Shown in pieces: positions 60,001-63,000 of a stretch of 64,000 nt of DNA. Location of the stretch: the UHGV virus genome UHGV-0036853. One strand, written 5' to 3'. A program made the position numbers. The DNA comes from a virus. Each line of letters begins with the position of its first letter. The stretch's first letter is position 1.

Positions 60001-63000
60001 ACTTGCCTTCTTCAACGTCACTTTTAAGGTTAACGATGAAACGCTGATCCTTAAGCATACCTGGTTTGTTCATTTCACGAATTTGGAGCGAGTCATCCCA
60101 GTACCGCAACGGAACCGATGCGATCATCTTGGTACAGTCTCTTATCGTCTGAATAGAACGAGATGCGTTAAGTGCAGTATGCATGTTTCCACCTTAGCCG
60201 GTAATAACTTTATGTCATAGCGGCGACCTTGTCGGTTTAGAGGCTACGAGTATGCGTCGATTTATTAAAACAAGGTATGATTTACTTGACATCCATGCAT
60301 CAAATCTACCTTGTGCTCTAATAATATGCAAATTTTATGTTAGAAAACGCCACTTTTGTTATGGCACTTTTCTGCCCCATCCACACAATCGCTCCCCAAT
60401 CATATTGTGAAAAAGCACCTCTCTTTCAGTCTCTTCGGTCATGAGATCATCACGGCTGATGTATAGCGGTGTAGCCGCATCGCAGAAAAGCACACCAGCG
60501 GGTTGAGGCTTAATCACGCAACCACTTATTGTGCAACTCATGATGAACAGTAGAAGCATCCTTGCGCCGTAACTCATCAAGTGTTTCATTTTTGACGTCC
60601 ACTGTGCTTTGAAGTCGTTTCCTGTCTTCCTGTTTTGCCTTCTCTTCCATTGCTCGTCGCGCCGCATTTCCGCCCATCGTGTAAGCGCCGACCAGAACGA
60701 AAAGAACGGCAGCCAGCGTAATCAAAGCAACTTTTAGCTTTGTCATCAGGCTGCCTAGCATATTAGACCATCCCTTTCTGGTGTCTTCTCACCTGCGACC
60801 AGGCGATAAATCCAGCCACAACAATAGTGGCAATACCGAAGATGATGCGTACTGTATCCCCGCTAGAGATATGACCTTGTGCTTTATCCATAGCAGCGGA
60901 AACCTGCGGCATAACATCGGCCAGCTGCGCCAGACCAATACCTGCTGTAACAGTTGCGCCTGCTGTTTCTTTAGTTACAGGAACAGCCTTCACGGTTTTC
61001 ACCGGCTTAACGACGCCAGCTCGACGCAGACCTTCCTCAATAACTTCTGCCGCATACCAGGTGTTCAGCGTTTTTAGCGGACCTCGCCCATTCTCATGGC
61101 GAATGATTGCCTCAACCAAAGGTCGAAGAATGTCGTAATCATGCAGATCGATAATCATGTCTGCGGTTACACCAACGGCTTTAGACACCTCATTAATGTA
61201 GGCGTCAGTGTTGTTTTCATTCGGCGGTGCCCAACGTTCAATAACTTCACGAATGGTATCGATACTTGAGCCGTCTTTTGCGCGACGTTTGTCGTGGTAG
61301 GTAATTAGAGTCACCGCCAGCGCACGAATCCCCCAAACAGGGTCTTTAAACGTGCAAAAGCGCGGTTCGTCTGGATTCGCAACCAGACCTTGCCACGGTG
61401 ATCCTTTATCAAGATTACCGGGGTTATTATTACGAATGCCTCTCGGAGTCTTCATCCTTGATCTCCTGTTATTGCAGTCCATTTTTTACGCCATACGCGG
61501 CTAACCCCAAAAGCAGTGCAGTAATAATGAACGACGTTATTTTAGAAACAATGCCGCCAAAGAACCCACTGGAGATGGAATCTAACCGGTTAAGGAGCTT
61601 GTCCAGATTGGAGTGTTGAATACTATGTTGCGCCGGGGTCATATCACCAAAGTAGGTTTTCAGCTGATCATTGACCTCCTGGCCAATTTCTTCACGTAGC
61701 TCTTTACCTAATTTGCCAACAACCTCCCGAGCAACGATCGCGGCAATACGCTCAACTTGCTCTGTTGTAACGCCCGCCATCTCGTTCGACATGTTTTCCT
61801 CCATGAAAAGTCAAATCGGGATGGCGGATTTATATCACATTTCACCCTTTTGTTGTAGGTGTGTACTTACCTATCATTCAGCATTGCAACGGACTGATGA
61901 GAAAGCACCTACTCCTACCCATCGCCAGTTATAGATGCTACCCGCTTTGTATAAGGTATAGTCGTTCACTTTTTTAACAGCATATATGGGTATGACTGTC
62001 TCCTGTCCACCAATGATAGCCTCACCATAACATATAGGTGTCGGCAATTTCTGGCAGCCAGTAAGAGAGAGAACAACAGCTATTGTTAGAAATAATCTTT
62101 TCATCATTTACTCATCAGTTATACAGATTTCTATTTATTACCGGTACTCTGCCATTTACGCTAAAACTATGGCCGCCATTAAGTTGGTTTACGAATATCG
62201 AGCTAACAGTATTTCCATATGCCGCATATCCATAAACCATTGTCATGGCTCCGCCCGGTACTGGAACAGCGAACACATTCGCATATGTTGGGATTATCGC
62301 TGGTGGGTAATCAAAAACATGCCCTCCAGAGCTGTTCCACTCCGTATTATTAAGAAAGGTAAATGAAAGTGGGATATTTGCCGTATTATAGATTTCCTCC
62401 CCTTGTGCATTGAAAAAACTCATGCCCCAAGTTTCTTTTTTGGCTATACCTTTCGAAAATACGTATATCGTGGCACTAGAGTCGCTACCCTGACCTCCGA
62501 AACTGTAAATCACCTGGTTGTTACGCACTATTCTGTTGGCTATTAATGAAACAGCTTTCGAATAGGCAACAAAAATCATCGGTGAACGATCTGGAGATAT
62601 TTGGGTGTTAAACTCTGTCCCGCCGGACAAAGAAACAACCTGCTTTCTCTGAAAAACGATAGGAGACAAAGAAGGAGACATCCAGACCTTCCCGTCAGAT
62701 CGATATATCTTGCTTCCGTACATTATTTTTGAAAAACCAATATGTTTAAATTACCACTAGCTCCAGACCATGAAATGGTATTTCCAGAAACCGTAAGACT
62801 TGTGTATTTCCCATTGGTTACGTCCATTATGTAATAGTCGATTCCCAATCCCGCCTCAACATCATATGTTCTACTTCCAGAACCAGAGGGAGTAAAATAA
62901 TCGAGGTAATAAACAGGGGCCAACGCATCGACCATCTCCTGTCTTGATGGCGACCAAACCTGTGCACCATAGCTCATAAATATATCCTTATAACTGCGGT

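Follow-up and report, generated by a model that had tools for sequence, protein, structure and literature searches.

The window examined here, the whole stretch of 64,000 nucleotides from UHGV virus genome UHGV-0036853, carries on its minus strand a short gene, cor, whose product of 77 amino acids (aa) is, judging from its sequence, very probably a Cor-family phage exclusion lipoprotein. Its signal peptide consists of a charged n-region (KR), the hydrophobic core LFLTIAVVLSL and the lipobox L15-T16-G17-C18, and the mature protein, predicted to begin at the lipidated Cys18, would be about 59-60 aa long; Pfam model LPAM_1 matches residues 2-19, weakly. By the established +2 rule for lipoprotein sorting, applied here as a sequence rule alone, Gln rather than Asp at position +2 of mature Cor points to the outer membrane as the predicted destination. 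Translation from a second in-frame ATG (62104) would yield a 76-aa form, and some relatives do use this start. At the 3' end of the gene there are tandem in-frame stops (61871-61876, TGA then TAG), and in some relatives (loci L029, L030 and L032) the first of these reads through as Trp, giving a product of 78 aa (…CNAEW) that ends at the second stop. The open reading frame (ORF) is kept on 73 plasmids at 95-100% nucleotide identity, and its divergence from the orthologue in Salmonella phage SSU5 (pN 0.29 at nonsynonymous against pS 0.82 at synonymous sites) indicates a protein-coding gene under purifying selection. Together with matches to curated hidden Markov models (HMMs; E 1e-23 to 1e-30), this conservation and selection place the ORF beyond chance. 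No second copy of cor, or of the pair of small genes that precedes it, was found in the window, and a search for promoters and terminators across 61300..63300 yielded nothing above the level of chance.

Evidence at the family level consistently assigns the protein to Cor. The product scores 80.7 bits against the NCBIfam equivalog NF047972 ('phage exclusion lipoprotein Cor'), for which the cut-off is 31 bits, with residues 2-75 aligned to positions 1-77 of the 78 in the profile, and it matches PHROG 1119 ('Cor superinfection exclusion protein', category 'moron') at E 2.3e-30 (residues 2-76 on 1-76 of 78). A Pfam search returned no family beyond the weak lipoprotein-signal match, and apparently no Pfam Cor model matches. 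When used as a tblastn query, the protein matched 193 phage records, at 59% identity in SSU5, 58% in Shiga toxin (Stx) phages of the Oslovirus type, 42-48% in lambdoid phages and N15 (including HK75, mEp235 and HK544), where the gene is annotated cor, and about 30-34% in T1-like and Dhillonvirus phages. Searching proteins by word index with the one sequence brought up only 4 relatives; a profile search of 5.8 billion proteins was far more productive, with 265 clusters spread over the Enterobacterales, of which many bear the name cor or 'phage exclusion lipoprotein Cor'. Family alignments of 19 and 50 members were built, and throughout the latter the lipobox Cys18, Cys26, Cys74, I41, Y42, Y53, G56, W63 and F69 are invariant, with Gly17 conserved in at least 90%.

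The annotation of reference genomes agrees with this assignment. PGAP (RefSeq) names the same gene 'cor: phage exclusion lipoprotein Cor' in 68 of 5426 complete E. coli genomes, on plasmids only. For plasmid p009_B (NZ_CP048306.1; positions 12024-12257 of our extract L002), the PLSDB gene table omits cor and lists two neighbouring 'hypothetical proteins'; the RefSeq record does annotate it, and the gap in PLSDB is therefore no evidence of an unannotated gene. The cor gene of the window had been annotated before, and its family is known and characterised; it is not a new kind of system.

Compared with the characterised Cor proteins of N15, phi80, HK022, mEp167 and T1, the protein belongs to the same curated-HMM family, is of similar size (77-78 aa) and has the same lipobox, the same two further invariant cysteines and the same YxAG...NWxWV motif. 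However, it is only 42-48% identical to them, and it is without the three-residue insertion (L-E/D-K) that follows the lipobox in the Cors of lambdoid phages and N15. The counterpart in SSU5 (SSU5_025, 'Cor-like superinfection exclusion protein') lies at the orthologous position in the same phage-plasmid lineage, but even here aa identity is only 57-59%, with synonymous sites saturated (pS 0.82).

The gene forms the end of a three-gene cassette (Table 1), in which an 84-aa protein of phrog_557 comes first, a 202-aa protein of phrog_425 second and Cor last, the whole being flanked by the genes for the side tail fibre and the holin. The genes are tightly packed: the stop of the 84-aa gene overlaps the start of the 202-aa gene, whose own stop (TGA) falls 7 nucleotides ahead of the cor ATG, and a gap of 69 bp separates cor from the holin gene downstream. 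Genes 22, 23 and 24 of N15 belong to the same families in the same order, N15 cor being gene 24. The 84-aa protein is 69% identical to SSU5_023 and 28% to N15 gp22 (E 4e-5), and the 202-aa protein is 75% identical to its SSU5 orthologue and 23% to N15 gp23 (E 4e-5). Neither has a signal peptide, and no hydrophobic or transmembrane segment was found in either (maximum Kyte-Doolittle values over 15 residues of 0.95 and 1.53); both look like soluble, beta-rich proteins, compatible with a role in the virion.

Table 1. Features at and around the cor locus of the window (coordinates are positions in the window).
Feature	Position	Strand	Basis or remark
Rz1	within 60359..60667		annotated spanin in SSU5, Cyrano, PhiR41_1
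Rz	60510..60761		annotated spanin in SSU5, Cyrano, PhiR41_1
Endolysin	60763..61482		after holin; annotated in SSU5, Cyrano, PhiR41_1
Holin, 107 aa	61469..61792	-	ATG preceded by GGAGG; annotated in SSU5, Cyrano, PhiR41_1
cor gene	61874..62107	-	ATG start; 77-aa prelipoprotein, MMKRLFLTIAVVLSLTGCQKLPTPICYGEAIIGGQETVIPIYAVKKVNDYTLYKAGSIYNWRWVGVGAFSSVRCNAE
Cor lipobox codons L15-T16-G17-C18	62054..62065	-	sequence; Cys18 = predicted acylation site
Middle cassette gene, 202 aa	62115..62723	-	PHROG 425 ('membrane associated protein'), E 4.5e-49
First cassette gene, 84 aa	62723..62977	-	PHROG 557 ('outer membrane protein'), E 1.7e-24
Side tail fibre gene, 3' part, P1 S-like	63068..64000, runs off window end	-	PHROG 6722 tail fiber, E 3e-201

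This arrangement recurs across phages. Of 79 viral-contig loci with a gene for a Cor relative, 70 show a 557-like and a 425-like gene directly upstream of it in the same orientation; at a further seven, all Stx-phage-like, cor adjoins a tail fibre adhesin gene, the first gene of the pair being detected some 3.3 kb further downstream, where the fetched DNA ends, and at the remaining two no pair was seen. The same 'extended cor cassette' is described for the T1-like phage KanT1 (PMC13164509, 2026), where it is reported to be present in T1, HK022, N15, ES18 and phi80, all of them FhuA-dependent, and where the complete cassette was seen, within the BASEL collection, only in phages that use FhuA (PMC13164509). 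In the proposal of the BASEL authors, the loci that follow gpJ specify dedicated receptor-binding proteins (RBPs) and, with them, the cognate exclusion proteins (PMC8594841). A location downstream of tail tip and fibre genes, after phrog_557 and phrog_425 members, is common to the window and the N15-type Cors; the window differs in that a side tail fibre gene separates J from the cassette, that the holin gene follows directly downstream, and that the carrier is an SSU5-like phage-plasmid of ~110 kb. The order of genes within the cassette is not fixed, as the T1-like Warwickvirus phage tonijn shows: there, a 91-aa lipoprotein with lipobox LTGC (positions 4452-4727 of our extract L003) is encoded upstream, not downstream, of the 557/425 pair. 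This protein is a remote member of the Cor family (PHROG 1119, E 6e-8) that tblastn with the window Cor misses.

The original prediction, made from the DNA of the window, had described a 77-aa lipoprotein with lipobox LTGC at 61874-62107, and these coordinates are exact, with the gene on the minus strand and cleavage placed at LTG|C (Cys18). It had set the gene directly beside the tail-fibre genes, but two small genes intervene between cor and the side tail fibre gene; its description of this position as classic for exclusion lipoproteins agrees with the place of cor as the last gene of a cassette that follows tail tip and fibre genes.

The DNA around cor comes from an SSU5-like E. coli phage-plasmid. 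Its lysis region matches the phages Cyrano, PhiR41_1 and CMS-2020a and Salmonella phage SSU5, and the 73 plasmids mentioned above, which are about 110 kb in size and nearly all from Escherichia, share with it, at 95-100% identity, the 1.15-kb stretch that contains the three small genes. On p009_B the genes run in the order tape measure, M, L, K, I, a J-like tail tip (1574 aa), the side tail fibre (1175 aa), the two small genes, cor, holin, endolysin and spanins. SSU5 has the same order, with the cassette between tail fibre genes and holin, and differs from the window in an extra tail-fibre adhesin gene upstream.

The cassette is not a constant part of this backbone. The lysis cassette was found in 238 of the 5426 complete E. 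coli genomes and the cor cassette in 68. In Cyrano (pLF82) the tail fibre gene leads directly to the holin gene, without a cassette, and PhiR41_1 has unrelated small genes at this junction. Conservation relative to SSU5 shifts sharply at the boundary between cor and holin (61805-61873): the holin is 96% identical in aa sequence (pS 0.56), whereas identity falls to 57-75% in the three genes of the cassette, with synonymous sites saturated, and megablast matches to SSU5, PhiR41_1 and CMS-2020a all end at this boundary. Such a break suggests either exchange of a module or fast evolution of a host-interaction cassette. Cyrano does carry a different allele of the 557/425 pair (93 and 201 aa) without Cor at 81837-82876 (positions 3905-4944 of our extract L026), in an insertion of about 1 kb whose site in the window spans only about 120 bp (11641..11761). 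The pair thus behaves as a mobile two-gene module that is able to occur without Cor. The J protein of Cyrano matches that of a plasmid with the cassette from end to end, at 97.9% identity; that Cyrano nevertheless has another pair allele elsewhere, and no Cor, is consistent with mobility of the module. These differences fit horizontal exchange of a host-interaction module.

The structure of Cor was modelled and compared with known folds, among them that of Llp, the lytic conversion lipoprotein of phage T5. An AlphaFold model from the single Cor sequence was poor (predicted local distance difference test, pLDDT, 52.8) and was discarded, and an AlphaFold2 model built with the 50-sequence alignment reached a pLDDT of 86.3, with values above 93 for the mature domain, a five-stranded beta structure. 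A Foldseek search of this model against the PDB gave no significant match, T5 Llp (7QJF) coming only 31st (E 0.38, TMt 0.53) in a list of Tudor/SH3-like barrels. The best matches in BFVD came from T1-like and T5-like phages and comprised a superinfection exclusion protein from a coliphage of the Dhillonvirus type (E 1.1e-4) as well as lipoproteins from T5-like phages and from phages of Proteus and Providencia. A 2026 preprint describes other Cor proteins as having a fold in common with Llp despite 18-25% identity (bioRxiv 10.64898/2026.03.26.714494), and the modelled window Cor is likewise similar to Llp in fold. Searches of the PDB with the single sequence and with the 50-sequence profile returned no Llp chains up to E 10; with no detectable sequence relation, we file the protein under Cor and keep Llp as a mechanistic model.

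Llp (PDB 8A60, 7QJF) is a small lipoprotein of the same length as Cor and is likewise encoded next to receptor-recognition genes, but it goes with a single RBP, pb5, rather than with a phrog_557/425 pair, and belongs to a different sequence family. In Llp a disulphide between Cys11 and Cys58 constrains the termini (PMC9586334). Cys26 and Cys74 of Cor are Cys9 and Cys57 in mature numbering, and by analogy with Llp we infer that they form an intramolecular disulphide. Rtp45 of phage Rtp is another small lipoprotein encoded beside a receptor-binding locus, and it too stops RBP binding from the periplasmic side (PMC12685063); it differs from Cor in its target, LptD (LptDE), and in its structure, with a long hairpin that enters the lumen of LptD, and the two were not detectably related in sequence.

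The characterised Cors of N15, phi80, HK022, mEp167 and T1 act on FhuA, a phage receptor, which they inactivate. Members of the family other than the window Cor, according to work cited in bioRxiv 10.64898/2026.03.26.714494 (Uc-Mass 2004; Hernandez-Sanchez 2008), exclude FhuA-dependent phages and inactivate transport by FhuA. We consider it likely that the gene in the window acts in this way, as a Cor-family exclusion lipoprotein of an SSU5-like phage-plasmid that jams FhuA. Cor would then be a periplasmic lipoprotein anchored in the outer membrane, with a beta-barrel domain of about 57 aa whose termini are tied by the Cys26-Cys74 disulphide, and would bind the periplasmic face and the plug of the TonB-dependent transporter FhuA. 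FhuA bound in this manner would be locked, its extracellular loops folding inward and refusing phage RBPs, and cells carrying the element, as well as cells lysing after its induction, would no longer adsorb phages that depend on FhuA (T1, phi80, N15, HK022 and T5, for example), probably including the element's own virions. Jamming of FhuA from the periplasm is the mechanism solved for Llp (PMC9586334) and proposed for Cor (PMC9586334; PMC13164509; bioRxiv 10.64898/2026.03.26.714494). The superinfection exclusion that had been proposed from the DNA of the window is supported by homology (NF047972, PHROG 1119 and the RefSeq cor label); the notion of receptor masking needs refining, since a block on the solved Llp mechanism would act from the periplasm and not as an external cover.

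That this particular orthologue blocks FhuA is a step we infer from the homology. By analogy with its relatives, FhuA is reasonably likely to be the target of the window Cor, and it is predicted, somewhat less likely, to be the element's own terminal receptor as well; both predictions are made because the cassette associates with FhuA-dependent phages. Several points weigh against them. The receptor reported for the prototype SSU5 (Kim et al. 2014, as cited in PMC12312913 and PMC4138488) is the lipopolysaccharide core, bound by the tail fibre, and not FhuA, and a literature search returned no test of FhuA for SSU5-like phage-plasmids and no link of these elements to FhuA. Cor-like proteins also occur in phages that use BtuB (PMC13164509), and Rtp45 blocks LptD (PMC12685063). 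The window Cor is at most 48% identical to any experimentally studied Cor and forms, with the Cors of SSU5 and the Stx phages, a subgroup without the post-lipobox insertion, and the allele of its accompanying pair is nearer to the pairs of Warwickvirus and Stx phages than to that of N15 (23-28% identity).

The alternative to which these points lead is that the protein is a Cor/Llp-type exclusion lipoprotein aimed at a different outer-membrane protein from FhuA, for example BtuB as another TonB-dependent transporter, or else BamA or LptD; this target would match the terminal receptor used by the divergent phrog_557/425 pair or by the J tip. Beyond the BtuB and LptD precedents and the affinities of the pair allele, it draws on the distance of the subgroup from the FhuA-blocking Cors (42-48% identity, and 57-59% even to the Cor of SSU5) and on the finding that the nearest relatives of the window Cor outside SSU5 are in Stx podophages. 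However, the protein scores far over the NCBIfam cut-off for the Cor equivalog and keeps every family-invariant residue, and in the BASEL collection the full three-gene cassette goes only with FhuA users; we therefore regard a different target as quite unlikely. A broader proposal, which we hold to be unlikely, is that the Cor subgroup of SSU5 and the Stx phages forms, with the divergent pair, a mobile receptor-binding pair plus cognate blocker with a specificity other than FhuA, or else that the pair constitutes the true terminal RBPs of SSU5-like phage-plasmids. If this were true, the receptor of these widespread elements, which carry antibiotic resistance, could be read from the cassette allele carried and from its location.

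Two further explanations give Cor no part in exclusion. A generic lysogenic-conversion lipoprotein in the manner of Bor or Lom, serving for instance in serum resistance or adhesion, would suit a small lipoprotein predicted to reach the outer membrane and encoded where morons are typical, with a PHROG category of 'moron', but the protein has no similarity to the Bor or Lom families, and family and fold point specifically to Cor/Llp, which makes this explanation very improbable. That Cor is an accessory of the lysis cassette, such as a spanin-like or lysis-regulating lipoprotein, is suggested by its position 69 bp upstream of and co-oriented with holin, endolysin and Rz/Rz1, but is extremely improbable given that a complete set of holin, endolysin, Rz and Rz1 is already there, that Cyrano has the same lysis cassette without a cor-like gene, that lysis-family HMMs give no match where Cor HMMs match strongly, and that homologues lie away from lysis genes in N15, T1 and lambdoid phages.

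With FhuA jamming as the preferred reading, the cassette probably protects its hosts from phages that depend on FhuA, and ferrichrome uptake is possibly altered as well. This bears on the choice of therapy phages against strains with these plasmids, although the practical value is small. The cassette is present in roughly a quarter to one third of the SSU5-like phage-plasmids of E. coli (68 of the 238 complete genomes with the lysis backbone). The reading also predicts, in a way open to testing, that this subgroup of phage-plasmids uses FhuA as its terminal receptor.

The genes on either side of the cassette offered some minor observations. The lysis genes match PHROG 873, 1026 and 1275. An identity of the cor product as a phage o-spanin (Rz1-like) was considered and rejected, there being no match to a spanin HMM and a separate Rz/Rz1 pair at 60359..60761. 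The mechanically called holin ORF (111 aa, ATG 61804) is probably four codons too long, and the ATG at 61792, with its GGAGG, fits the annotated 107-aa holin. On the other side, the side tail fibre gene contains at 63537-63874 a tandem repeat of 120 bp (2.8 copies, 73% matching), which encodes a repeated motif of about 40 aa (…NQNTTGNAASATKLQTARTIGGVSFNGTANINLPGVN…) in a fibre part that resembles the S tail fibre of phage P1.

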